A DNA stretch of 64,000 nt, taken from IMG/VR virus record IMGVR_UViG_3300036818_000105, positions 32,001-96,000 of that record, one strand, 5' to 3'. A program made the translations under genes and the position numbers. The notes below the pieces were generated by a model. The model was not told the DNA's origin, searched no databases, and was given only the letters and a program-made list of their open reading frames with translations. Shown here in pieces: positions 3,107 through 24,978 of the stretch (its first letter is position 1; every line of letters starts with the position of its first letter). This stretch comes from a virus.

Positions 3107-3394
3107 TCAGATCAGGCGACCGCACCTCGTGCAGAATGAGCCGGGCGGGATGCGGTGCTCGCACGGGGCCTCGCTGGCGGGCTCGGCCGCGCCCGTGCCG
3201 ACGTCCGTGTGCGCCGTGCTGGCCACGGGCTGGCCATCCCGGTCAAAGCGGCTGAGTTCAGCATCAATGGCGCCCTCGACCCAGACTGACCGGGGCGTCT
3301 CGCCGCGCGCCTTGTCGATCGCTTCCGCCTTCGGCTCGCTTACGCGGACCGGGATGACAACTCGCTTGCCCTCAGGGGTCCGTTCTCTCGCCAT
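3107..3394 (-). CDS. Ribbon-helix-helix-like DNA-binding protein with C-terminal Cys/His motif
   Basis: VVIPVRVSEPKAEAIDKARGETPRSVWVEGAI fits the RHH pattern; divergent from tnpB. Confidence 0.65.
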   Translation of the reverse strand: MARERTPEGKRVVIPVRVSEPKAEAIDKARGETPRSVWVEGAIDAELSRFDRDGQPVASTAHTDVGTGAAEPASEAPCEHRIPPGSFCTRCGRLI

Positions 3395-3400
3395 GGAAGG

Positions 3401-3416
3401 AGTATACGCGTATACT
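3401..3416. promoter_or_regulatory. Perfect 16-bp palindrome forming back-to-back -10 boxes for two leaderless genes
   Basis: AGTATACGCGTATACT; TATACT lies 6 nt before GTG 3423 on + and 6 nt before ATG 3394 on -. Confidence 0.75.
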
Positions 3417-3422
3417 GATTGA

Positions 3423-4685
3423 GTGACTATACGGAACCGGCTATACCCCGACGCACGGGCGGAAGCGATCATGCGCGACCTGCACTGTGCGCAAGCCCGG
3501 TACGTGTGGAACCTCTGCGTCGAGCAGGAATCCTGGTGGCGGCGGGACCGCGGGAAGATGCCAACCTGGGTAGAGCGATGCCGCCAGTTGGCTGAGGCGC
3601 GGACTGAGTTTGAGTGGCTTCGCGCGGGCAGTAATGCAGTCCAGCAGCAGGCCATCAGGGACTTCGGACGGGCGATGACCGCCTTCCTTGATCCGAAGAA
3701 CCCGGCTAGAGAGCCAACGTTCCGGAAGGCGGTCCGCGATGAAGGATTTCGCATCGTCGGGGAGCGATCGGGACCGCACGTTTCCTGGGGCCTTCGGCGC
3801 CTGAACCGCAATTGGGGCGAGGTCCGCATCCCGAAGGTCGGCTGGGTCCGCTTCCGCTGGTCTAGGCCAGTTCCGGGAGATGTGAAGTCCTTCCGGGTCA
3901 CCCTTGACCGCGCAGGCCGATGGCACGTCTCGTTTCCGTCTCCGCAGGGCGCCGTCGGCCGTCGGCCGACCGGGGCGGCCGTCGGCATTGACCGGGGCGT
4001 CCGAACTGCCCTGGTCACCTCAGAAGGCCAGCATTTCCGAGTGCCCAGAATTGGCGACCGTGCTGCAGGGCGGTACGTCGCCCTGCAGCGGCGCATGTCC
4101 CGCCAGCAGAAGGGCTCGCGCAAGAGGGAGAAAACCCGGCTGGCAATGGCCCGGATCGCGGTAAGGGTTGCCGACCGGCGCAAGGACTGGGCAGAGAAGG
4201 TCTCCACGCGACTTGTTAGCGACTACGACCTGATCGTGTTCGAAAAGCTGAACGTGGTCCGCATGACTCGCAAGTCTGCACCCAAGTCCGATCCTGATCA
4301 GGTCGGTGCATTCCTTCCCAACAAGGCCCGCGCGAAGGCTGGGCTGAACCGAGGCATCCTCGCGGCATGCTGGGGCATTCTGGCCGCCCGTGCCGAGGAG
4401 AAGGCTGTCGCATCAGGCGTGAGTGTCATCTACGTCAACCCGAGATTCACCTCGCAGCAGTGCCATGCGTGCGGCCACGTGAGCCGGAAGAACCGCGAGA
4501 GCCAAGCGGTATTCCGGTGTGAGTCCTGTGGCCACCATGATCATGCTGACGCGAACGCTGCGAAGAACGTACTTGCCCGGGGGCTAGGCACAATGGCGGT
4601 CCCTGCGCACGCCCCGGGTCACGGGGTGCAACGCCCGCATAAGTCCGCGAGAGCGGCGGCGGGAACCACCCGGAGTGCGACATAA
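3423..4685 (+). CDS. tnpB: RNA-guided endonuclease TnpB (IS200/IS605 family), copy 1
   Basis: ARYVWN N-terminus; RuvC motifs GIDRG, VFEKL, HADANAAKN; zinc finger CHAC...CESC. Confidence 0.93.
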   Translation: MTIRNRLYPDARAEAIMRDLHCAQARYVWNLCVEQESWWRRDRGKMPTWVERCRQLAEARTEFEWLRAGSNAVQQQAIRDFGRAMTAFLDPKNPAREPTFRKAVRDEGFRIVGERSGPHVSWGLRRLNRNWGEVRIPKVGWVRFRWSRPVPGDVKSFRVTLDRAGRWHVSFPSPQGAVGRRPTGAAVGIDRGVRTALVTSEGQHFRVPRIGDRAAGRYVALQRRMSRQQKGSRKREKTRLAMARIAVRVADRRKDWAEKVSTRLVSDYDLIVFEKLNVVRMTRKSAPKSDPDQVGAFLPNKARAKAGLNRGILAACWGILAARAEEKAVASGVSVIYVNPRFTSQQCHACGHVSRKNRESQAVFRCESCGHHDHADANAAKNVLARGLGTMAVPAHAPGHGVQRPHKSARAAAGTTRSAT

Positions 4686-4745
4686 GCACTCCGGGAAATC
4701 CCCGTCCATCAAGTCGGGGAGGATGTCAAATCCAGTACTTCGCGT
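4600..4745 (+). ncRNA. omegaRNA of tnpB #1: scaffold, right end and guide (5' boundary approximate)
   Basis: Stem CCCGGAGTGC/GCACTCCGGG; right end ATCCCC...GGGGAGGATGTCAA ending at 4729; guide from 4730. Confidence 0.75.
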
Positions 4746-4775: not shown

Positions 4776-5360
4776 ATGAGCAACCCAGACATTCAGTATT
4801 TCGGCAGTTCCGGCACGTGGGTAAAGCCCCCGAACGCCGTCCGCGTTGACGTGGTGCTCAAGGGCGGCGACGGCGCCGCCCCCGGCACCGTGCCGGGCGG
4901 AGGCGGCGACCCGCTCTCGGGCCCTGCGTTTACAGGCACCGGAACCCTTAACGGCAGCACGGGCGGTGGGGGCGGCGGCGGTACGGCCGTGTATCCCGCT
5001 GCCCGGGGAGGCTCCGGGCCGCGCGTCAGCGTGGTCTGCAGCCCGAGCCCGGCCGCGTCTCCCGTAGGAATCCTAGGCTCGCTGAGCGTGGATTCTTACG
5101 ACGCCGATGACTTTCCCGCCGAGCTTCACGTCGAGGTCGGCAAGGGCGGCAGGCCCGGAGGCCGGGACGGGTACGCGCTGATCGTCACTCACCTGGCCTC
5201 GCCTAGCCTGCCGTCAGTTCCGCCGCATGACCTGATGCTTCACGCCCACTCCCGCGACCACCCGGACGACGGGGAGCCGCACGAGCACCTTCACGCCGGG
5301 CCCGGTCACATGGGACTTGAGCACGTCCACCCGCACCGGCATGCCTCGGGAGAGCAGTGA
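4776..5360 (+). CDS. Glycine-rich domain protein with a His-rich tail
   Basis: QYFGSSGTWVKPPNAVRVDVVLKGGDG resembles the Gly-rich module of tail proteins; AGGAGG RBS. Confidence 0.65.
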   Translation: MSNPDIQYFGSSGTWVKPPNAVRVDVVLKGGDGAAPGTVPGGGGDPLSGPAFTGTGTLNGSTGGGGGGGTAVYPAARGGSGPRVSVVCSPSPAASPVGILGSLSVDSYDADDFPAELHVEVGKGGRPGGRDGYALIVTHLASPSLPSVPPHDLMLHAHSRDHPDDGEPHEHLHAGPGHMGLEHVHPHRHASGEQ

Positions 5361-15484: not shown

Positions 15485-16078
15485 ATGACCACGCAAACAC
15501 CCCGCAGCCGCGGCGGCAACGGCAAGTTCACCCGCGCCGCCGAGAGCCGCAAGCGCGACTGCCGTGCCGCCGAGCTCCACGGGCAGGGCTGGTCCTACCA
15601 GCGGATCGCCGACGAGCTCGGGTTCGCGTCCAAGGGCCACGCGCACAACGGCGTGATGCGCGCCTACGCCGACATGTGCACCGAGGAGGCGGGGCAGGCC
15701 CGGCAGGCCGACCTTGACCGCATCGACCGGCTCATCGAGCAGGCGTGGCAGGTGATGCTGACCCCGCACCTGACCGTGAACAACGGCAAGGTCATCCGCC
15801 ACTTCGCGGGCTTCGAGCGCGACGAGGACGGCATCGAGCGCCTCGACATGGACGGCAAGCCGATCCCGGTCTTCGTGGACGTGCTCGACGACGGCCCGAG
15901 GCTCGCCGCGGTCGGCGTCATCAAGGGGCTGCTCGAGCGCCGGGCGAGGATCTTCGGCTACGACGCCCCCGCCAAGTCCCGCGTCGAGGTGATCACGGCC
16001 GACATGGTCGAGTCGCAGATCGCCGACCTCGAGTCCCAACTGGCCCGCAATGACCCCGCTGGTCCAGGCACCCCCTGA
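15485..16078 (+). CDS. terS: Terminase small subunit
   Basis: HTH GWSYQRIADELGF; LLERRARIFGYDAP; directly upstream of terL. Confidence 0.8.
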   Translation: MTTQTPRSRGGNGKFTRAAESRKRDCRAAELHGQGWSYQRIADELGFASKGHAHNGVMRAYADMCTEEAGQARQADLDRIDRLIEQAWQVMLTPHLTVNNGKVIRHFAGFERDEDGIERLDMDGKPIPVFVDVLDDGPRLAAVGVIKGLLERRARIFGYDAPAKSRVEVITADMVESQIADLESQLARNDPAGPGTP

Positions 16079-18818
16079 CCGCCTGCGGTACCTGCTGGAG
16101 CTCCAGCGCCGCGCCGCGAGGATCAAGCACGGGATCACCAGGTACTACGACGACCCGGTCGGCTTCGCGCGTGACTGCATCGACTGGGGCGACAGCGAGG
16201 GCCTGACCGAGTACCAGGAGGAGATCCTCGACGGGATTCCCCGCCGCAAGCGCGTCGCGGTACGAGGCCCCCACGGGCTCGGCAAGGCGCTAGAATTGAG
16301 TGTGCGCATACCCACCCCTTCCGGCTGGTCGACCATCGGCGGCCTGCGCGTCGGCGACGAGGTTTTCGACGAGCACGGCAAGCCCTGCCGGGTGACGGGC
16401 AAGTCGCCCGTATGGCACGGCGACACGTACGAAGTCGAGTTTGCGGACAAGACCGTCATCACCGCTCACGGCGAGCACGAGTGGAACGCAGTCGACGTCT
16501 ACCACCGCCCGAAGACACCGAAGCCAGACCGGCGGCCTGTGCCCGTTTCGGACTGGCGCGACCACTGGGTATCGACTAGGCGCGTCACTACCGCGTACAT
16601 GGCGGAGCACATGCTCTCGCCTGGCGGTCAGCTTCGGTGGCGCATCCCGGCAGCACGCCCGCTGGAGCTACGTGCCGCCGACCTGCCGGTTGACCCGTAC
16701 ATCCTTGGGTACTGGCTCGGTGACGGATCGTCGAGGGGCGCCCAGATAACGATCTGCGCCAGCGACTGGCCGAGCCTGCAAGAGCGCCTGAAGGATGCCG
16801 GGTATCACCATGGCGAGCCCCGGCCGCATAAGGCCAGCCCGTCAACCTTCTCAGTGGGCGTCTCCACGCAGCCGGTGCGCCGTGGCGGCGGCCAGCATGA
16901 CACGCTGGCGCTCAGGCTCCGCAATCTCGGCGTCCTCGGCAATAAGCACATCCCGGTGATCTACCAGCGGGCATCCGCGGCGCAGCGCATGGAGGTTGTG
17001 CGCGGACTGTGGGACTCGGACGGCTACCGGCAGGCTGGCGGCAGCGACGAGATCACGCTCACCTGCAAGCCGCTAGCGGATGACGTAGCTGAGCTGCTGC
17101 GGTCTCTCGGCCTGGTGGTCCGGGTAAGCGAAAGCGACTCCAAGATTGACGGGCGCGTGGTCGGCCGCAGGTGGCGCATCGCCGCCCGGTTCGACTTCAA
17201 CCCCTACCGTCTTGCGCGCTACGACTGGGAGCCCCGCGGCCGGCAGTCCTCTCGCCACACCCAGCGGACGATCACGGATATCCGCAGGGTGGCCGACAAG
17301 CCGACCCAGTGCATCGAGGTGGACTCGCCGTCGCACCTGTACCTCGCTGGCGACTCAATGATCCCGACGCACAACTCCGGGATAGCGGCCATCGCCGTCC
17401 ACTGGTTCGCCCTGACGCGGGACGCGGCCGGCGTCGACTGGAAGATCCCTGCGACCGCCGGGTCATGGCACCAGCTGACCCAGTACCTGTTCCCTGAGAT
17501 CCACAAGTGGGCCGGGCGCCTGCGATGGGACAAGGTGCGGGACGGCCGCCCGTTCTCCCGCGCGCACGAGCTCCAGAACCTGAACCTGCGCCTGGCGCAC
17601 GGCTCCGCCTTCGCGGGGGCATCGGCGAACGCGGCGCTGATCGAGGGCGCGCACGCCGACTCGCTGCTGTTCCTGTTCGACGAGGGAAAGGCCATCCCGG
17701 CCGCCACGTTCGACGCATGTGAGGGCGCCCTCGGCGGCACGGGCGAGGCCTTCGCCCTGATCCTGTCAACGCCGGGGGCACCGTCAGGGCGCTTCTACGA
17801 CATCTGCGCGCGCAAGCCCGGCTACGAGGACTGGCACCCTGTCCACGTCACCCTCGAGCGCGCGATCGCCGCCGGGCGCATCAGCGAGGAGTGGGCTGAG
17901 CAGCGCGCCCGTCAGTGGGGCACCGAGTCGGCGATCTACCAGAACCGCGTCCTGGGCGAGTTCTACGCCAGTGACGAGGACTCGGTTATCCCCCTCGCGT
18001 GGGCGGAGGCGGCGGTTGCCCGCTGGCACGCCTGGGACGAGGCCGGGCGTCCGGAACCGGGCAGGCCGCGCACGGTTGGCGTGGACGTGGCCCGCACCGG
18101 CCAGGACCGCACGGTCCTCGCCCTCCGCAACGGCCCGGTGATCACGGAGCTGCGCCGGTCGGTGAAGGAAGACACGATGCAGACCACCGGCCGCGTGAAG
18201 GGCATCCTTGACGCCGACGACTCGGTTACCGCCGTGGTCGACGTGATCGGCATCGGCGCAGGCGTCGTTGACCGCCTCCGCGAGCAGCACGCCCGGGTGC
18301 TGGCTTTCAACGCCTCCCGCGGGTCGAAGGCGAAGGACAGCACGAGGGAGTTCGGCTTCGCGAACCGCCGGAGTGAGGCGTGGTGGACGATGAGGCAGGC
18401 GCTGGACCCGTCGAGCGACCCGGATATCTGCTTCCCTGACGACGAGATGCTGCTCGGTGACCTCTCGGCACCGCAGTGGAAAGTCACGTCATCCGGAAGG
18501 ATCGCGGTGGAGACTAAAGAGGAGATCGCCAAGCGCCTAGGCCGGTCAACTGACGACGGTGACGCGGTAATTCAGGCTTTCGTCCCGCACCTCGGCGAGT
18601 CTTCGCCGGGCACCGTCCGCAAGTGGGCCGGGTCCGTCGAGCTCGACAGCATGGGCGTGAGCGAGGAAACGAAGGCTCACCGCCGCATGAGGGAGATCGC
18701 GGGCAAGGCGGCCGAGGGACTTGAGGACGCGCCGTGGGATCTCGACGGATTCTCGCCGCAGGACGGCGATGACAGACCGCAGGGCGGGCGACGGGGCAAC
18801 GTCCGGACGTGGCAGTAG
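16050..18818 (+). CDS. terL: Terminase large subunit containing an intein
   Basis: Walker A GPHGLGK|S split by the intein; Walker B LFDE; ILSTP; nuclease motifs GVDVARTGQD and RSTDDGDA. Confidence 0.93.
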   Translation: MTPLVQAPPDRLRYLLELQRRAARIKHGITRYYDDPVGFARDCIDWGDSEGLTEYQEEILDGIPRRKRVAVRGPHGLGKALELSVRIPTPSGWSTIGGLRVGDEVFDEHGKPCRVTGKSPVWHGDTYEVEFADKTVITAHGEHEWNAVDVYHRPKTPKPDRRPVPVSDWRDHWVSTRRVTTAYMAEHMLSPGGQLRWRIPAARPLELRAADLPVDPYILGYWLGDGSSRGAQITICASDWPSLQERLKDAGYHHGEPRPHKASPSTFSVGVSTQPVRRGGGQHDTLALRLRNLGVLGNKHIPVIYQRASAAQRMEVVRGLWDSDGYRQAGGSDEITLTCKPLADDVAELLRSLGLVVRVSESDSKIDGRVVGRRWRIAARFDFNPYRLARYDWEPRGRQSSRHTQRTITDIRRVADKPTQCIEVDSPSHLYLAGDSMIPTHNSGIAAIAVHWFALTRDAAGVDWKIPATAGSWHQLTQYLFPEIHKWAGRLRWDKVRDGRPFSRAHELQNLNLRLAHGSAFAGASANAALIEGAHADSLLFLFDEGKAIPAATFDACEGALGGTGEAFALILSTPGAPSGRFYDICARKPGYEDWHPVHVTLERAIAAGRISEEWAEQRARQWGTESAIYQNRVLGEFYASDEDSVIPLAWAEAAVARWHAWDEAGRPEPGRPRTVGVDVARTGQDRTVLALRNGPVITELRRSVKEDTMQTTGRVKGILDADDSVTAVVDVIGIGAGVVDRLREQHARVLAFNASRGSKAKDSTREFGFANRRSEAWWTMRQALDPSSDPDICFPDDEMLLGDLSAPQWKVTSSGRIAVETKEEIAKRLGRSTDDGDAVIQAFVPHLGESSPGTVRKWAGSVELDSMGVSEETKAHRRMREIAGKAAEGLEDAPWDLDGFSPQDGDDRPQGGRRGNVRTWQ
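16287..17375 (+). mobile_element. Class 3 intein (363 aa) with LAGLIDADG homing endonuclease
   Basis: Starts ALELSVRIPTPSGW, ends IPTHN/S; W-C-T triad (HEW, TQCIEVD, PTHN); YILGYWLGDG and RGLWDSDG. Confidence 0.9.
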
Positions 18819-18832
18819 GCAGGCCGACCCGC

Positions 18833-19237
18833 CTACATGAACTCCACGTCCTCCCCGGCCGCCGCTGCCTTCCGTAGCCCGTCGATGAACCGCTCAGTGT
18901 TTTCCCGCGCGCGGTAGACCGCGCCGTCCAGCAGCGGCAGCAGCTGCTCTAGCCGGTCCGCGAGGTGAGCGCCGTGCTGCGGGTGAATGACCCCGTCGCA
19001 GTCCGAGTGAACGAGCAGGAACAGCAGCGGGTCGTCTCCGGGGATGGCGTCCCACTCGCCCAGGTAGTTCTTGTCCTCGAACATCTCCCACGGCAGTTCG
19101 TAGTACGCCTCGCCGCGCAGGACGTTAGGCGTTCTGTCGCTGACCTGGTACCCCGCCGCCCTGGCCACCTCGCGCCGCCACCGCTGGAACCCGCCGTACG
19201 GCCCGTGCCAGCACTCGTGACTGGTGTCTAGTCCCAC
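18833..19237 (-). CDS. Conserved hypothetical phage protein
   Basis: MGLD...GPYGGFQRWR...LLVHSDCDG. Confidence 0.7.
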   Translation of the reverse strand: MGLDTSHECWHGPYGGFQRWRREVARAAGYQVSDRTPNVLRGEAYYELPWEMFEDKNYLGEWDAIPGDDPLLFLLVHSDCDGVIHPQHGAHLADRLEQLLPLLDGAVYRARENTERFIDGLRKAAAAGEDVEFM

Positions 19238-19259
19238 GCCCGGCAGCCTACATGCGCGC

Positions 19260-19550
19260 TCAGGCCGGGCCCTCCCCTTCCGCCGCGAACTGCTCCGGGT
19301 GGGCGATGGCGTACCGGGCCACTATCAGCTCGTGCTCGCTCAGGTATTCAGGGTCAAAGACGTAGACCCGGCGCGGCGTCCCCGGCTGGTCGCACTCGGG
19401 GCCCCCGTCCCGGTGGACCGCGTCACTGGCGAAGTGACGGTGGAACGGCCCCCACGACTCCGGCCACTTGCCGGCTCGCTCAGCCTTGTCGCGGTCGGCC
19501 TCCCACGGCGTGCGGGTGTCCTGGTCGTCCTCTGGGTCCGGGGTGCTCAT
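19260..19550 (-). CDS. Hypothetical protein, paralog of the C-terminal half of 9159..9659
   Basis: Sequence near-identity to 9405-9623. Confidence 0.75.
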   Translation of the reverse strand: MSTPDPEDDQDTRTPWEADRDKAERAGKWPESWGPFHRHFASDAVHRDGGPECDQPGTPRRVYVFDPEYLSEHELIVARYAIAHPEQFAAEGEGPA

Positions 19551-19801
19551 GACTTCCTCCGGTTGCTGGTCACCACGGGCTCGAACTCGGCCGTCCAGCC
19601 CTCAGTGCCACGGTAGACGGTAACCGGGGCGTTCTTCGGCGCGAACGCCGCGCCTTCCATGCGGACCACCCCGATGCCGGGCAGCGTGATGCCGTCTCCG
19701 GCTAGGGCGTACTCGCCCGGGAGGTAGCGCGTCCCGCACCGTTCGTGACCCGGCCCTTGGCAGCGTCCCGTCCCGGCGACACGGCAGCGCCACTCAGGCA
19801 T
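19547..19801 (-). CDS. Hypothetical protein
   Basis: Coupled within a leftward operon. Confidence 0.5.
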   Translation of the reverse strand: MPEWRCRVAGTGRCQGPGHERCGTRYLPGEYALAGDGITLPGIGVVRMEGAAFAPKNAPVTVYRGTEGWTAEFEPVVTSNRRKS

Positions 19802-20156
19802 TGCCGTCAGCCCCTTCCCCCGGCGCGAACTTAGCGGCCTCTCGCTCGATGTCCGGGTTGTCCTCAGCCGACTCCAGTACGAGCGATGCGCCGCGCTGGA
19901 GCCGGTTGGCGAGCACGAGCGCGTCTTCGGCCGTGAGCAGGACAGAGGAGACGCTCGGCGTGCCGTCCCCGTCCTCGCTGTTGATGACCAGTCCGACCAT
20001 GCCGGGGTCATGTGCCGCGTCCCCGCAGTGCTCGCAGGTAGACGCGCCCTCAGGCTCGTAGACGTGCTCGACGATGATCACGGTGTCTTCGTCAGGGTGG
20101 ACGCACCCGAGGATGCGTGAGCGGATTCTGATGCCGCCGGGCTCGTTGTCACTCAT
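19794..20156 (-). CDS. Hypothetical protein, probably leaderless
   Basis: TATACT lies 7 nt before ATG 20156 on the minus strand. Confidence 0.65.
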   Translation of the reverse strand: MSDNEPGGIRIRSRILGCVHPDEDTVIIVEHVYEPEGASTCEHCGDAAHDPGMVGLVINSEDGDGTPSVSSVLLTAEDALVLANRLQRGASLVLESAEDNPDIEREAAKFAPGEGADGNA

Positions 20157-20225
20157 AAGCCAGAGTATACCCGGATATTGCCGCTTCACTGTGTAGTGCG
20201 CACGTTCATCATGTAGAATAAGGTC

Positions 20226-20471
20226 ATGACCGACGCTAGCCCGGTTGCCATCCAGCGAGCCATCGCGGCCAACATCCGAGCCGAACGCGCCCGCGCCCGG
20301 CTCTCTCAGCAGGCCGTGGCAGACGCCATGCAGAAGCGCGGGTTCGCCTACTGGCGCCAGCAGACAACCGGAGCGACCGAACGCGGCGAGCGCCGGATAA
20401 CCGCCGATGAACTGACCGCACTCGCCGCCGTATTCGGCACCGCGCCGGAGACGCTCTGGCGGATGCCGTGA
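20226..20471 (+). CDS. XRE-family HTH regulator
   Basis: NIRAERARARLSQQAVADAM...ERGERRITADELTALAAVFG; TAGAAT lies 6 nt before the ATG. Confidence 0.85.
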   Translation: MTDASPVAIQRAIAANIRAERARARLSQQAVADAMQKRGFAYWRQQTTGATERGERRITADELTALAAVFGTAPETLWRMP

Positions 20472-21658
20472 GGCGGGCCTACAAGTTCCTCGCATACCCG
20501 ACGCGACCCCAGGAGGGCCGCTCGGGCGCGCTGCTGCGCGACCACTGCGACCTGTACGACGCCGCGCTCGAGGAACGCCGCGAGGCGTGGCGGATGCGGA
20601 AAGCTCCGGTGTCCTACGGCATGCAGTCTGCCCAGCTCAAGGAGATCCGAGCGGCCGACCCGGACGGGCAGGGGAGGCACTCGTTCACCGCCCAGCAGCA
20701 AACCCTGCGCAGGCTCAACGACGCGTTCGTTATGTTCTACAAGCGGTGCAAGATCCCGGGCAAGAAGCCGGGCTACCCGAGGTTCAAGCCGTACGCCCGG
20801 TTCGATCAGGTCCGGTTCGTCGCCGGAGACGGTGCGAAGTGGACCCCGGCGAACGGCATTGGCTGGGCACGCGCCTACTTCCAGGCGGTCGGCTCGGTCA
20901 AGGTGAAGCAGCACCGGCCGGTGACGGGCACCGTCAAGGCGCTCCAACTCAAGCGGGAGCACCGCCGCTGGTACGTCATCGTCATCACCGAAACTGAGCC
21001 GGTGCCGCTGCCCCCGGCGGGCCGTGAAGTCGGCGTAGACGTGGGGGTGGTGCGGTTCCTGACCACCTCGGACGGCGGGATCGTGGCCAATCCGCGTTTC
21101 TTCGCCGCGTCGGCCGGGGTGATCGCGGACTTGCAGCGCCGCATGAACCGCGCCAGGCCGGGTTCGGGGAACCGCAAGCGGATCAGGCGCGCCCTGGCCC
21201 GGGAGCACCGCAAGGTCAGGAACTCCCGCCGCGACTTCCACCACAAGACCGCGCGAATTCTCATTGACGAGTGTGACGTGATCGCCCTGGAAGACCTCAA
21301 CACGGAAGGGATGACCAGGCGTCCCAAACCGAAGCCCGACCCGGACAAGCCGGGCGAGCACCTCCCGAACGGGGCCGCCTCCAAGGCCGGCCTGAACAAG
21401 TCGATACGCGACGCGGGCTGGGCACAGTTCATGAGCATCATCGTCGGCAAGGCTGAGAGCGCCGGCCGGCGAGTGATCCTGGTGGACCCGCGGAACACGA
21501 GCATCGACTGTCACCAGTGCGGGCGAAGATGCGAGCGCCCGCAGCAGGACACGGTTATCTGCCCCGCGCACGGCGCGATGGACGCCGACGTGAACGGGGC
21601 CAGAAACATCGCCAGCAGGGCCGGGCTGGGCTCTGGTCAGGCCGCGCGAGCGGCCTGA
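20468..21658 (+). CDS. tnpB: RNA-guided endonuclease TnpB, copy 2
   Basis: RAYKFLAYPT; RuvC motifs GVDVG, ALEDL, DADVNGARNI; zinc finger; GTGA-coupled to the XRE gene. Confidence 0.93.
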   Translation: MRRAYKFLAYPTRPQEGRSGALLRDHCDLYDAALEERREAWRMRKAPVSYGMQSAQLKEIRAADPDGQGRHSFTAQQQTLRRLNDAFVMFYKRCKIPGKKPGYPRFKPYARFDQVRFVAGDGAKWTPANGIGWARAYFQAVGSVKVKQHRPVTGTVKALQLKREHRRWYVIVITETEPVPLPPAGREVGVDVGVVRFLTTSDGGIVANPRFFAASAGVIADLQRRMNRARPGSGNRKRIRRALAREHRKVRNSRRDFHHKTARILIDECDVIALEDLNTEGMTRRPKPKPDPDKPGEHLPNGAASKAGLNKSIRDAGWAQFMSIIVGKAESAGRRVILVDPRNTSIDCHQCGRRCERPQQDTVICPAHGAMDADVNGARNIASRAGLGSGQAARAA

Positions 21659-21711
21659 GAAGGTGGCGGAGCGATCCGCCATAGCAGTCACCCAGTTTTC
21701 CAGATACGTCG
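21590..21711 (+). ncRNA. omegaRNA of tnpB #2 (5' boundary approximate); right end at TCAC 21691, guide from 21692
   Basis: Hairpin TGGCGGA-GCGA-TCCGCCA followed by TAGCAGTCAC. Confidence 0.75.
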
Positions 21712-21727
21712 ACGACTTCTTTCTCTC

Positions 21728-21774
21728 CTCCCTGCTGCACGGCGGCGAAAGCCCCGCCGCCAGGCAGCAGGGAG
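21728..21774 (+). terminator. GC-rich hairpin just downstream of the guide
   Basis: CTCCCTGCTGC...GCAGCAGGGAG with an inner GGCGG/CCGCC stem. Confidence 0.55.
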
Positions 21775-21812
21775 CGTGACCGGCACTGCCTCCGCACGCT
21801 AGCCTGTGAGCG

Positions 21813-21847
21813 TGCACGTGCATTCGTCGCGTGCAGATGCACACGCT
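21813..21847 (+). promoter_or_regulatory. Late-promoter-like motif, copy 3 (portal; third box degenerate)
   Basis: TGCACGTGCA-N7-CGTGCA-GA-TGCACAC. Confidence 0.65.
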
Positions 21848-21875
21848 AGCGGCGGAGAGGAGGTGATGCTTGGGT

Positions 21876-23492
21876 ATGGTCGACACTCGCTCCGCAAATG
21901 TCGTCGCCTTCCCCGACCTCGCGCCGAAGGGCTCTCGCGGCCCCAGCGGCAAGCGGGCCCTTTTGGGTCCAGAGGTAGGGACGTCGTTCGATTACGGACA
22001 GCGCTTGTTCGCCTACTATTAGTTAAGGCGAAGGAGATGTGTTCGACTACGGCTTAGCGAATTTTCCGCTCGTGACTACAAAACGATGTTGTCCCGTAAC
22101 GGAATGTGCGCGGCCATCGAGCAGGTACTCACTCTCCCGATCAGGGGCGCCCCGTACACCATCGAGCCCGCCAAGGGTGACCAGGGCGAGGCCGAGTTCG
22201 TGACCAGCGTTCTCATGACAGCCGACGAGGACGGCGGCATGAAAACACCTATCAGCACGCTGGTCGGCCAGATTACGAGCGCGCAGATTTTCCGTCGCGC
22301 CTTCTTCGAACGTACTTACAAGGTTCGCGAATCCGACGGCAAGATCATTTACGACAAGGTGGCCTTTCGCCCCCCCGCGACCTGTCAGGCCAGGTACAAC
22401 GACCGTACGGGCGAGCCGAACGGGTTCCGTCAGCAGGTCTGGTTGTTCGGCGGGAACTTGATGCTCAACCGCACTCAGAAGGTTCCCGGCTACGTCGACA
22501 TCCCGAAAATCAGGAGCTACATATACACCCACGGGAAACACAGGGAACCTCTCACTGGTGTCAGTGAGATGGAAACGGCCTACTGGTGCTACCAGACCCA
22601 GGCGAAGCTAGCCTACCTATGGCTCAGCTTTCTCGAGGGAATGGCGATGCAGCGCCTCGTCGTCTACGGCAACGACCAGCCGGAGGCATCCCAGCGAGCG
22701 GATGACATCTCCCAGCTGCGCGGTTCCGGCATTGTCGGCCTTATCCACCCGATCGACGGGCAGAAGTCGTTCGAGGCCCTCCCCACGGCCGCGGACGCGG
22801 GCGCCCAGTTCGCGGCGTGCATGACGTACCTGGAGAACTGGGCAGCCAGCAGCGTCCTCGCCGGCTTCCTGCAGCTTTCCGGCGCGGCGGCGAAGGGCAC
22901 CCGGGCGGGCGGCGGCGCCAGTGCCGGCTCCTACGGCATGAGCGAGGACCAGAGCTCGTACTACCTGGCCTCCCGTGAGGCGGCGGCAACGGAGATAGCG
23001 GACAGTATCTCCCATGACCTGATCCGCCCCCTGGTGACCCTGAACTTCGGCGCGGACGCGGCGTTCCCGAAGTGGAAGTTCGGCCCGTTGCAGGAGGCCA
23101 TGACGGCCGTACTTTTCACCATGTTCGGGCAGCTAGCCGCCGCCCCCAAATTGAACCTGCCCCTCGCGTTCGTGGACCTCCTCACCGAGCGGATGGCGGT
23201 GATCCTGAACCTGGACGCGGACCAGATTCACGAGTCGCTGGTGAATACCGCGTCGCAGCGGGCGGAGGCGCTGGCGGGCAATCCCCCGCCCGGCATACCC
23301 CCGGAGGCCGCGGCGGGACTGGGGCAGTTGCAGGGGCTGGCGCAGGCGGGGACGTCGATCGCGCAGCAGGCGATAGCGAGGAACGGCGGGCCGCCGACGC
23401 CGCCGAAGGTGACCATGCCGCCGGCCGGGCCGCCCGCGCCCCCGCCCAAGCCGCCGATGGCCGGGGGACTCGCGGGGGCGGCGGCGCAGTGA
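21876..23492 (+). CDS. Portal protein; 5' part interrupted by 7-nt and 5-nt inserts (uninterrupted ORF is 22086..23492)
   Basis: Position after terL; ISHDLIRPLVTLNFG typical of Mu gp29/DUF935-type portals; AGGAGG RBS before ATG 21876, in frame with 22086. Confidence 0.8.
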
Positions 23493-24978
23493 CCGGGTGC
23501 GCGAGGTGCAACGGCGAGGGGTGGACGTGCGAGTCGCATCCCCGCCGCGCGTGGGGTGACATGTGCTGCGACGGGCCACGCCGGGCGGCGATCGTGCACC
23601 AGTTGCACCGCCTGCTGCCGTACGGCGGGCCATTCCGGCTGGCGTGGCGGATCCGCGTGCTGTGCGAGCACGGCGCGTGCCACTGCGGCGGCGCCGGCGA
23701 CCCGTGCCCGGACTGCAATTCCACGGCTGACGTCAACTGGGCCGACAATCATTGCGGAGGCGTCCTGATGACCCCGGAGGAGGCCGCGAACTTCTGCGAG
23801 GACGACGAGGACCCGCGCGAGGTCTTCGCCCGGTTCGACGCCGGGCCGCACGTCGTCACCGGCCAGGCGTGGTACGAGGCGGGCGGCACGCTGCCGCTTG
23901 CCCTTACCGCCGTGCGCAACGGCACGGGCACGGCCGAGCGGGTCCGGCGGGGACTGGACTACATCAAGGCGACATACGGGCCGGGGGCGAGCCAGTGAGC
24001 CTGACGATGCTGACGGAGATCGCAGACCACTGCACCGTGCGGACTCCCCTCGGCGAGACCGAGTTCGCCGACGTCACCGTGATGGTCGTCGAGAACGTAC
24101 TGACCGTGAACCGCGACGGCCGCACGCTGGCGTGGTTCGCGGCCGGGTCATGGCGGGTGAGCTTCCTGTGAGCGAGTGGCGGCGCGACCCGGTCAAGTAC
24201 TGGTGGGAACTCGGCTACTGGGACGAGCCCCGGCAGGAGTTCATCGGCGTGGCGTGGGTGACTGACGAGGTGATCGCCCGCGCCGACCCCAGGATGACCG
24301 CCGCGTACCTGTACCGCAAGCTCGGCACCGTGCCGCCGCCGCTGGCCGGGTATCCTCCGCCGCCACCCGTGCCGGTGACGGTCGTGTACGCGGAGGGATC
24401 GCGGTGAGCGACTACAAGATCGCGAAGACGCTGCGGGTCGTCCGGGAGGGCGCCGGCGGTGCGTCTCGCCTCTACATCGACGGCGAGCCGTTCGACTACG
24501 CGACGGTCGACGGGTACACGGTCCACCCGAGGCGGGGCGAGATGCCGGGCGTTACCGTCACGATCGCCGCGTGGCGGGTCGAGCTCGTGGACGACACCGA
24601 CGCGAAAGCCGGGCGAGTTGTCGCCGGCCGCGCCAGGTTCCGAACCAGATCAGGAGAGTTAGCCCAGTGACCGAGAGCAAGCCCGGTGCCGTTGCCGTCA
24701 TCGACCAAGCCGGCCGCCACCACCACTTCGACGCGGACGACTGGCTCGTAGACCTGAAGGGCTACCTGCACGTCACGAAGGACGGCAAGAACGACGATCC
24801 TGTCGCCTTCTTCACGCCGGGCTTCCTCGGCGTCTACAGGGTCAGCGCCCGCGCCGCCGCGCCGGTAACGGTCATCGGTTCACCCCGAACCGCTGCCGCA
24901 AGCGCCGCCATCGAGACCTTGCGGCGGGAAGTCGAGGCGGCGCCAAGCGGAGAAGGAAAGGCGGGTGATGCCCTGTGA
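23489..24978 (+). other. Cluster of small coupled hypothetical genes after the portal
   Basis: GTGA-coupled ORFs ending at 23998, 24171, 24407, 24670 and 24978. Confidence 0.6.

Follow-up and report, generated by a model that had tools for sequence, protein, structure and literature searches.

The DNA analysed here, referred to below as the window, is a stretch of 64,000 nucleotides (nt) comprising bases 32001-96000 of a 124,491-bp virus record of IMG/VR (IMGVR_UViG_3300036818_000105), which has direct terminal repeats. The window contains two genes for TnpB proteins, tnpB #1 and tnpB #2. The main subject of this study is tnpB #2, which lies between the genes encoding the large terminase subunit and the portal protein, together with a regulator gene and a predicted omegaRNA whose candidate guide resembles a segment of the portal gene. 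The virus is a phage of soil, and the G+C content of its whole genome is 70.7%. Megablast of positions 19000-24000 against deposited phages produced no match, none being close at the DNA level, and the portals of deposited Streptomyces phages are at most 37% identical to the portal of the window (tblastn).

The terminase gene (16050-18818), which contains a probable LAGLIDADG intein, precedes the tnpB #2 cassette and is separated from it by several small minus-strand genes. All elements of the cassette are on the plus strand. These are a gene encoding an XRE-type helix-turn-helix protein of 81 amino acids (aa) (20226-20471), tnpB #2 itself (20468-21658, 396 aa), the 3' part of the omegaRNA scaffold, coinciding with the transposon right end (21579-21691), the guide segment (21692-21710), and a strong G+C-rich stem-loop (21727-21775). 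A small conserved open reading frame (ORF) of 48 aa (21876-22022) lies between tnpB #2 and the portal gene (22086-23492, plus strand). The latter belongs to the Portal_Mu family (Pfam, 1.5e-25) and carries the site that matches the guide.

The tnpB #2 cassette

The product of the first gene is similar to Pfam HTH_31 (6.3e-7) and to a transcriptional repressor family of PHROG (5.1e-5). The stop codon of this gene overlaps the start codon of tnpB #2 (GTGA), which makes it the leading gene of the cassette operon, translationally coupled to tnpB #2.

TnpB #2 is a predicted RNA-guided nuclease with Pfam domains OrfB_IS605 (1e-23) and Cas12f1-like TNB (5e-16), and the ISDra2 TnpB structures 8bf8, 8exa and 8h1j match it at E ~8e-30. 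The RuvC residues D191, E275 and D374 occupy invariant columns in an alignment with five homologues (A1), and in a solved TnpB-type nuclease their counterparts lie in the motifs GVD.G, EDLN and D.D.N. The zinc finger CxxC...CxxH is also present. The protein belongs to a large family: 4381 TnpB relatives were found at E <= 1e-60, and its relatives from metagenomes reach 92% identity (P0002, 92%; P0017, 87%; P0003, 85%).

The right end of the element was delimited by comparison with six viral homologues (37-42% identical, L006 and L007 being near-identical to each other) and four close genomic homologues (67-75%). In all four close and all five distinct distant homologues it is formed by a hairpin followed by ..AGTCAC or ..GGTCAC, after which the sequences diverge. 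The same right end occurs across 70 elements whose right ends were located from the ORF stops. A covariance model, R1, was constructed from 26 homologous right ends, with the window left out. Its consensus structure contains a terminal hairpin with seven base pairs showing compensatory changes. In the window, the right end ...CATAGCAGTCAC also terminates in AGTCAC and stops at 21691. R1 matches positions 21579-21691 along the full length of the model (1-110) with 71.7 bits (E 2.6e-15), the match ending exactly at 21691. The full-length match and the position of its end indicate that the omegaRNA scaffold is intact and that the 19 nt directly following the conserved right end, CCAGTTTTCCAGATACGTC, sit where homologous elements keep the guide.

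The folding energy of the region 21560-21790 is -126.1 kcal/mol (z -5.0), and the predicted fold contains a long hairpin at 21727-21775. It has no T tract and was not flagged by a consensus terminator scan. On the basis of the predicted fold, this hairpin likely serves as the terminator of the cassette transcript. The scan of the window with Rfam gathering thresholds matched no family.

Homologous elements have a left end with a hairpin of the GGGGACTGTC...GACAGAGGAA type and often encode the Y1 transposase TnpA. A left-end hairpin and a TnpA ORF were looked for near tnpB #2, and neither is present; the XRE gene lies where the left end would be expected. The sole match to the left-end motif in the window is at 19941, and there is no hairpin there. 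By its sequence anatomy, the cassette is not a complete IS200/IS605 transposon.

The guide matches the portal gene

Positions 22823-22841 of the portal gene read GACGTACCTGGAGAACTGG, which is the reverse complement of the guide with two mismatches (17/19) at guide positions 7 and 13. The target site is on the minus strand, and the guide is antisense to the portal mRNA. In the reading frame starting from the ATG at 22086, the mismatches at 22829 and 22835 affect the third base of a codon (TAC/TAT and GAG/GAA) and thus are synonymous. Beyond guide position 19 and on the scaffold side, no similarity to the portal gene is seen. An earlier note on this DNA, compiled from its letters without database searches, had reported this match with its coordinates and letters, its silent mismatches, its start at guide position 1 and its end after 19 nt, as well as the intact RuvC triad and a GCTGC flank on the side of the transposon-adjacent motif (TAM). 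All these statements hold: the neighbouring bases are unrelated to the portal, the TAM-side flank reads GGCTGC, and the start of the guide is right, as homologous right ends end alike and then diverge.

We also considered the possibility that the segment is a longer, decayed remnant of the portal gene, which the same note had named as grounds for refutation. It was rejected, since translation and alignment past both ends of the match revealed no similarity.

On both strands of the window, with at most three mismatches allowed, the guide matches itself and the portal site and nothing else; none of 100 dinucleotide shuffles produced a second match at this threshold. Even with up to four mismatches allowed, the guide has no partner other than the portal site anywhere in the 124,491-bp genome. 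Analytically, matches of at least 17/19 are expected 2.6e-4 times in the genome and 1.3e-5 times within +-3 kb. The genome does abound in short GC-rich matches, and a partner with at most two mismatches exists for 159 of 3000 random 19-mers, as would be expected if an ordinary flank resembled the portal gene by chance. However, the guide is AT-rich relative to the genome, and when genomic 19-mers of matching composition (at most 10 G+C) were sampled, such partners were observed for 20 of 3000, a count that includes real repeats and the guide itself. A fortuitous resemblance would also have to begin exactly at guide position 1, to have both mismatches in synonymous positions, and to lie, in the relatives, directly beside a TAM that was derived independently (see below). 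A chance origin of the match is very unlikely, and for practical purposes it is excluded.

The earlier note had proposed that the guides of homologous TnpBs be surveyed for matches nearby. Such a match exists, but only in one of the 70 homologous elements (L106) does the own 19-nt guide have a partner with at most two mismatches in the fetched flanks. In this element, from a bacterial metagenome-assembled genome (MAG), the 21 nt after the TnpB right end recur 87 nt downstream with 20/21 identity (3726-3832 of L106). The repeat is situated at the start of the next gene and is preceded by GCAT. This layout is similar to that of tnpB #1, described below, and occurs outside phages.

A candidate TAM of the tnpB #2 family

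The TAM was derived from 27 element copies in eight multi-copy groups (Nonomuraea, Microtetraspora, MAGs, Dactylosporangium, Streptomyces, Mycobacterium, Ktedonobacter) using the boundaries of similarity between copies. In 22 of 27 copies, representing six groups, the tetranucleotide CCAT is located at or beside the left similarity boundary, and the DNA upstream of it is unrelated. In the other two groups similarity starts elsewhere, and their four copies have no CCAT at the boundary. In L004, L005, L006, L008, L070 and L074, CCAT is found 8 nt before the conserved block of the left end. It is positioned approximately 19 nt 5' of the hairpin foot, which is the geometry of the target site in IS608. 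Since nothing is conserved upstream of CCAT, we infer from the copy boundaries that the elements target this motif and that it therefore serves as the TAM of the family. The comparison of element copies thus also yields a candidate TAM for this actinobacterial TnpB clade.

In the window, the TAM position of the portal site (22842-22845, minus strand) is occupied by CTGC, corresponding to the alanine codon GCA. In nine relatives it is CCAT, corresponding to the methionine codon ATG. The two codons differ at each of their three positions.

Portal alleles in relatives

Forty-six related portal loci were collected from viral contigs. The guide site is covered in 44 of them, and 19 are close, with 82-88% protein identity. 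Among the close loci, nine have CCAT directly 5' of the minus-strand site and one to four mismatches to the guide. The best allele, that of L015, differs from the guide in one position (18/19; position 13); two mismatches are observed in L010 (positions 13 and 14), in L009 and L050 (positions 10 and 13) and in L011 and L012 (positions 7 and 13), and four in L013, L014 and L026. As the mismatches are confined to position 13 in L015 and to positions 13 and 14 in L010, both these alleles retain guide positions 1-12. Four further close loci, L022-L025, have TCAT and two mismatches, and the remaining six, L016-L021, have CTGC and four mismatches. The resident allele combines CTGC with two mismatches. 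The 25 more distant loci have six to 12 mismatches and no CCAT. It had been expected that relatives would carry portal alleles perfectly matching the guide and preceded by a constant TAM. As regards the TAM, the CCAT alleles indeed include ones whose agreement with the guide equals or exceeds that of the resident allele; the perfect match, however, was not found.

The bases in which the guide differs from the resident allele are natural variants of the portal gene: GAA is present in L009, L010, L013 and L015, and TAT in L022-L025. Contigs from five soil DNA runs, of which small shares were used, are consistent with this, as T is the majority base at 22829 (C>T, giving TAT) in the abundant portal contigs of runs X1-X3.

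A guide antisense to the portal mRNA could also act on the resident virus itself. The ribonucleoprotein (RNP), or the 3' tail of the omegaRNA alone, would pair with the resident portal DNA or mRNA and tune its expression in the manner of TldR proteins, and gene-regulating retargeted relatives of TnpB are indeed known (PMC10705468). However, the D-E-D triad of TnpB #2 is intact, whereas TldRs are defined by the loss of the RuvC residues. The resident site has two mismatches and is devoid of CCAT, and it is located 737 nt inside the ORF rather than at a promoter. We regard a regulatory role as improbable.

The terminase-portal slot

Homology between the window and its relatives resumes at approximately 21795-21890, just past the cassette. 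The terminase-portal spacer is variable, with sizes between about 360 bp and about 3 kb (approximately 360 bp in L044, 1050 bp in L051 and 2770 bp in L010). None of the relatives carries the tnpB #2 cassette, and tblastn against the 46 portal loci matched only a different TnpB in L053. In L010 the slot of the cassette, directly before the portal gene, is occupied by a gene for a 287-aa HNH endonuclease with a NUMOD3 motif (2739-3602 of L010; Pfam 1.3e-7; PHROG HNH endonuclease 3.9e-25). The L053 element (1676-3421 of L053) encodes a TnpB that is about 30% identical to both TnpBs of the window. It is a clean insertion of 1746 bp approximately 580 bp upstream of the portal gene; the empty site is seen in six near-identical contigs, L016-L021. 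The left flank of this element ends with ..CGCTAC, and its guide is ordinary flanking sequence. This region, in which the portal gene of L052 also carries an intein-like insert (see below), is a hot spot of selfish nucleases.

The soil runs provide additional data on the distribution of the cassette. Near-identical contigs of low depth (2-7x) cover the XRE gene, tnpB and the guide, and they come from runs of two studies. Relatives with about 90% identity, at a depth of 150-350x, cover positions 19271-19584 and 21783-23500 and do not cover 19585-21782. This pattern would fit, without proving it, a cassette residing in a minority lineage among abundant cassette-less relatives. One contig joint in X3, from 19580 to 21999, has a side of 22 nt; it is too weak and was not used.

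Several other observations concern the genes around the slot. The terminase ORF (922 aa) contains a LAGLIDADG/Hom_end segment, with the insert at approximately 16286-17402. It is probably an intein, because L044 and L051 align on both its sides and lack about 1.1 kb there. The portal gene of L052 (2382-4882 of L052) has an intein-like insert with LAGLIDADG motifs at a point corresponding to approximately 22590 of the window, between W and C of TAYWC(Y/H)QTQ; the frame shifts after this insert. The 48-aa ORF at 21876 is in the same frame as the portal gene and is separated from it by a TAG codon at 22020-22022, in place of which L052 has TGA. In L010 the region of the 48-aa ORF and the portal gene is one continuous ORF of 585 aa. 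The in-frame stop could reflect readthrough, two separate genes or a broken 5' end. Finally, a minus-strand gene of 120 aa from an unknown family (19794-20156) is shared with L052 (1382-1995 of L052; 73% nucleotide identity). In L052 it is preceded by an XRE gene in the same orientation, whereas the XRE gene of the window points the opposite way, into tnpB #2.

tnpB #1

The second transposase-less TnpB of the window is encoded by tnpB #1 (3423-4685, plus strand, 420 aa). It was identified by Pfam and is 34% identical to TnpB #2 (BLASTP, 8e-50). By analogy with the L053 element, the right end was placed at 4729, so that the putative guide, the first 13 nt of which occupy 4730-4742 on the plus strand, begins with ATCCAGTACTTCG. 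The next gene reads ATTCAGTATTTCG at 4791-4803, in codons 6-10 (IQYF). This is an 11/13 match on the same strand, and the differences are silent. In the closest complete relative (G001, the record behind L044), no TnpB precedes this gene, which reads ATCCAGTATTTCG and matches the guide at 12/13. No other partner of this guide was found in the genome, and the exact 18-nt guide has no matches in viral contigs. Relatives of the gene following tnpB #1 were sought in viral contigs: peptide patterns revealed none, and a single one is known, only in the record behind L044.

A minus-strand gene of 95 aa (3107-3422) diverges from tnpB #1, with the palindrome GTATACGCGTATAC in between. By eye its product resembles a ribbon-helix-helix protein, and it matches no Pfam or PHROG family. 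A 2026 preprint reportedly describes Arc-type repressors in IS605 elements. Besides, 21 nt of the omegaRNA region of tnpB #1 (4687-4707) recur with two mismatches at approximately 120585-120605 of genome G000, outside the window. This recurrence may be an orphan remnant of a right end or a product of chance.

Interpretation

The explanation that we favour, with a probability of roughly 50%, is that the tnpB #2 cassette encodes a free-standing nuclease that is guided by RNA and serves homing or competition. Stripped of its transposon, with neither TnpA nor a left end, TnpB #2 would have stayed competent as a nuclease and would be maintained in the variable terminase-portal slot as part of a self-contained cassette made up of the XRE gene, tnpB, the omegaRNA and the terminator. 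Upon expression, the 19-nt guide of the omegaRNA would pair with the portal coding strand, the minus-strand site in the relatives having 5'-CCAT before it. When a CCAT-bearing relative infects the same cell, the RNP would cleave the portal gene of this relative. The resident allele would be spared because its TAM has been lost (CTGC, with the Met-to-Ala change ATG to GCA), with an additional contribution of the mismatches at positions 7 and 13. The broken rival genome would then be repaired from the cassette-bearing one, and both the resistant portal allele and the cassette located 1.1 kb away would be copied. The net result would be RNA-guided "intronless" homing together with marker exclusion, as performed by free-standing homing endonucleases, and a corresponding gain in inheritance.

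A number of results weigh against this explanation. No portal allele matches the guide at 19/19. The exact 19-mer has no matches in viral contigs and 15 matches in metagenome contigs, but the latter are all unrelated, as judged from their surroundings and from tblastn, and none is in a portal or TnpB context; thus the perfect portal alleles predicted by the earlier note did not materialise. Guide position 13 is mismatched in every CCAT allele seen. The abundant allele of X1-X3 appears to be TAM-less like the resident one, although this is weak evidence, read from the fact that no changes are listed at 22842-44. The conservation of the target window is average for the portal gene (46th percentile), giving no signal either way. 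The identity profile along the portal gene shows no recombination breakpoint at the site; this test has little power, because the relatives are only 75-85% identical. No clean empty site was found for the family, as the orthologous flanks of the L076 element in eight Streptomyces genomes are too diverged at the junction, and so the TAM rests on the copy boundaries. Finally, the concordance of the TAM and the guide is equally expected if the guide is the flank of an old canonical insertion.

The last point leads to the main alternative, according to which the cassette is a relic. A canonical insertion sequence would have inserted 3' of a CCAT on the minus strand of a portal gene, for example in a defective prophage. 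Later, tnpB with the right end and about 19 nt of the flank would have been moved into this phage by illegitimate recombination and persisted as an idle passenger. Such an origin accounts for the concordance directly, since canonical insertion turns the flank into a guide and leaves the TAM and the target in uninterrupted alleles. Canonical elements do enter this phage group, as exemplified by the 1746-bp L053 element and its empty sites in L016-L021. TnpB-only elements are very common, as seen from the size of the family at E <= 1e-60, and the failure to find a perfect target allele also fits a fossil. On the other hand, the retained flank is exactly guide-sized and is followed by unrelated sequence and the candidate terminator. 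An insertion in the portal gene would kill a phage, and at least two illegitimate events would be needed to bring the segment, inverted, to its place 1.1 kb upstream of a portal gene that is intact. Moreover, ORF, catalytic residues and omegaRNA scaffold have all stayed intact, a coupled regulator has been gained, and the resident portal gene has no TAM. We consider an idle relic rather unlikely. This reading and that of a working nuclease are not mutually exclusive, as a captured flank may well have been the origin of the nuclease.

A more general proposal, which we offer as tentative, is that in phages nuclease-active TnpBs have repeatedly been turned into free-standing homing endonucleases programmed by RNA, acting as a gene drive between co-infecting phages. 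Such a TnpB would give up transposition and retain one fixed guide against the neighbouring essential gene of rivals, with its own allele protected by the loss of the TAM and by silent changes. The window would then hold two cassettes of this kind, tnpB #2 directed against the portal gene and tnpB #1 directed against the gene that follows it. The earlier note had ascribed the same design to tnpB #1. The matches to the resident gene and to G001 agree with that, but the similarity stops after 13 nt, and an equally anchored 11/13 match within 500 nt was observed in three of 68 control elements (one being the real repeat of L106, and the other two GC-rich). The parallel between tnpB #1 and tnpB #2 is weak and suggestive only.

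Under the homing interpretation of tnpB #2, defined portal alleles should be cut in a CCAT-dependent manner, the resident allele should be immune, and inheritance should be biased.

Comparison with known systems

Two roles of TnpB are known, those of the maintenance nuclease of its own transposon and of a nuclease-dead repressor. As regards the former, TnpB #2 resembles ISDra2 TnpB of the IS200/IS605 family (PDB 8exa, 8h1j) in family and domain composition, in the intact RuvC site, in the omegaRNA scaffold that spans both the right end and the 3' end of tnpB and is directly followed by the guide, and in the predicted TAM-dependent targeting. TnpB is described as using a guide of about 16 nt taken from the flank (PMC10705468). 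Unlike IS200/IS605 elements, the cassette lacks TnpA, a left end and a TAM at a left junction, and it is coupled to an XRE regulator; its guide matches, 1.1 kb away, the opposite strand of a gene, and not an adjacent "empty site".

The likeness to TldRs is that a relative of TnpB resides outside a transposon, is phage-borne and has a guide matching a gene other than its own flank. TldRs are nuclease-dead TnpB-like repressors, some of them in prophages, with a mutated RuvC site and often a truncated C-terminus, and the search in the study describing them was limited to RuvC-mutated proteins (PMC10705468). TnpB #2 is not a TldR, because the D-E-D triad and the zinc finger are present. In full-text searches of the literature, no report was found of a TnpB that is active as a nuclease and has been retargeted to a phage gene next to it. 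A preprint on cyanophages, in its available part, only speculates about phage TnpB. If the homing interpretation is correct, the cassette would represent a third natural use of TnpB, as an active, transposase-less nuclease aimed at an essential gene of a rival phage.

Viruses are also known to carry CRISPR arrays and mini-arrays aimed at related viruses, including the CRISPR systems of huge phages. The putative similarity is in a virus-carried RNA-guided nuclease acting against the genes of competitors, with self protected by mismatches. The differences are that tnpB #2 has a single fixed guide within the omegaRNA, without repeats or adaptation genes, and that the target is a close neighbour of the cassette, so that homing would become possible in addition to exclusion. 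With its guide fixed and turned on foreign DNA, such a TnpB would illustrate a plausible step between the transposon TnpB and Cas12 of the defence type.

A further comparison is with phage free-standing homing endonucleases such as Seg and Mob of T4. As with these, the cassette is situated between conserved essential genes, its putative target is a neighbouring conserved gene of relatives, and the self allele differs by a few substitutions. Indeed, in L010 the same slot is held by a protein-type homing endonuclease gene, the HNH one with NUMOD3. A 2026 review of homing, in its available text, distinguishes intron, intronless, transposon-restorative and non-restorative types and covers the free-standing homing endonuclease genes of T-even phages, and this text gives no TnpB example of intronless homing (PMC13565253). 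The difference from Seg and Mob is that recognition would be performed by an RNA guide and a TAM, and not by protein. If so, the cassette would connect RNA-guided nucleases with free-standing homing endonucleases and their biology, as well as with marker exclusion between phages.

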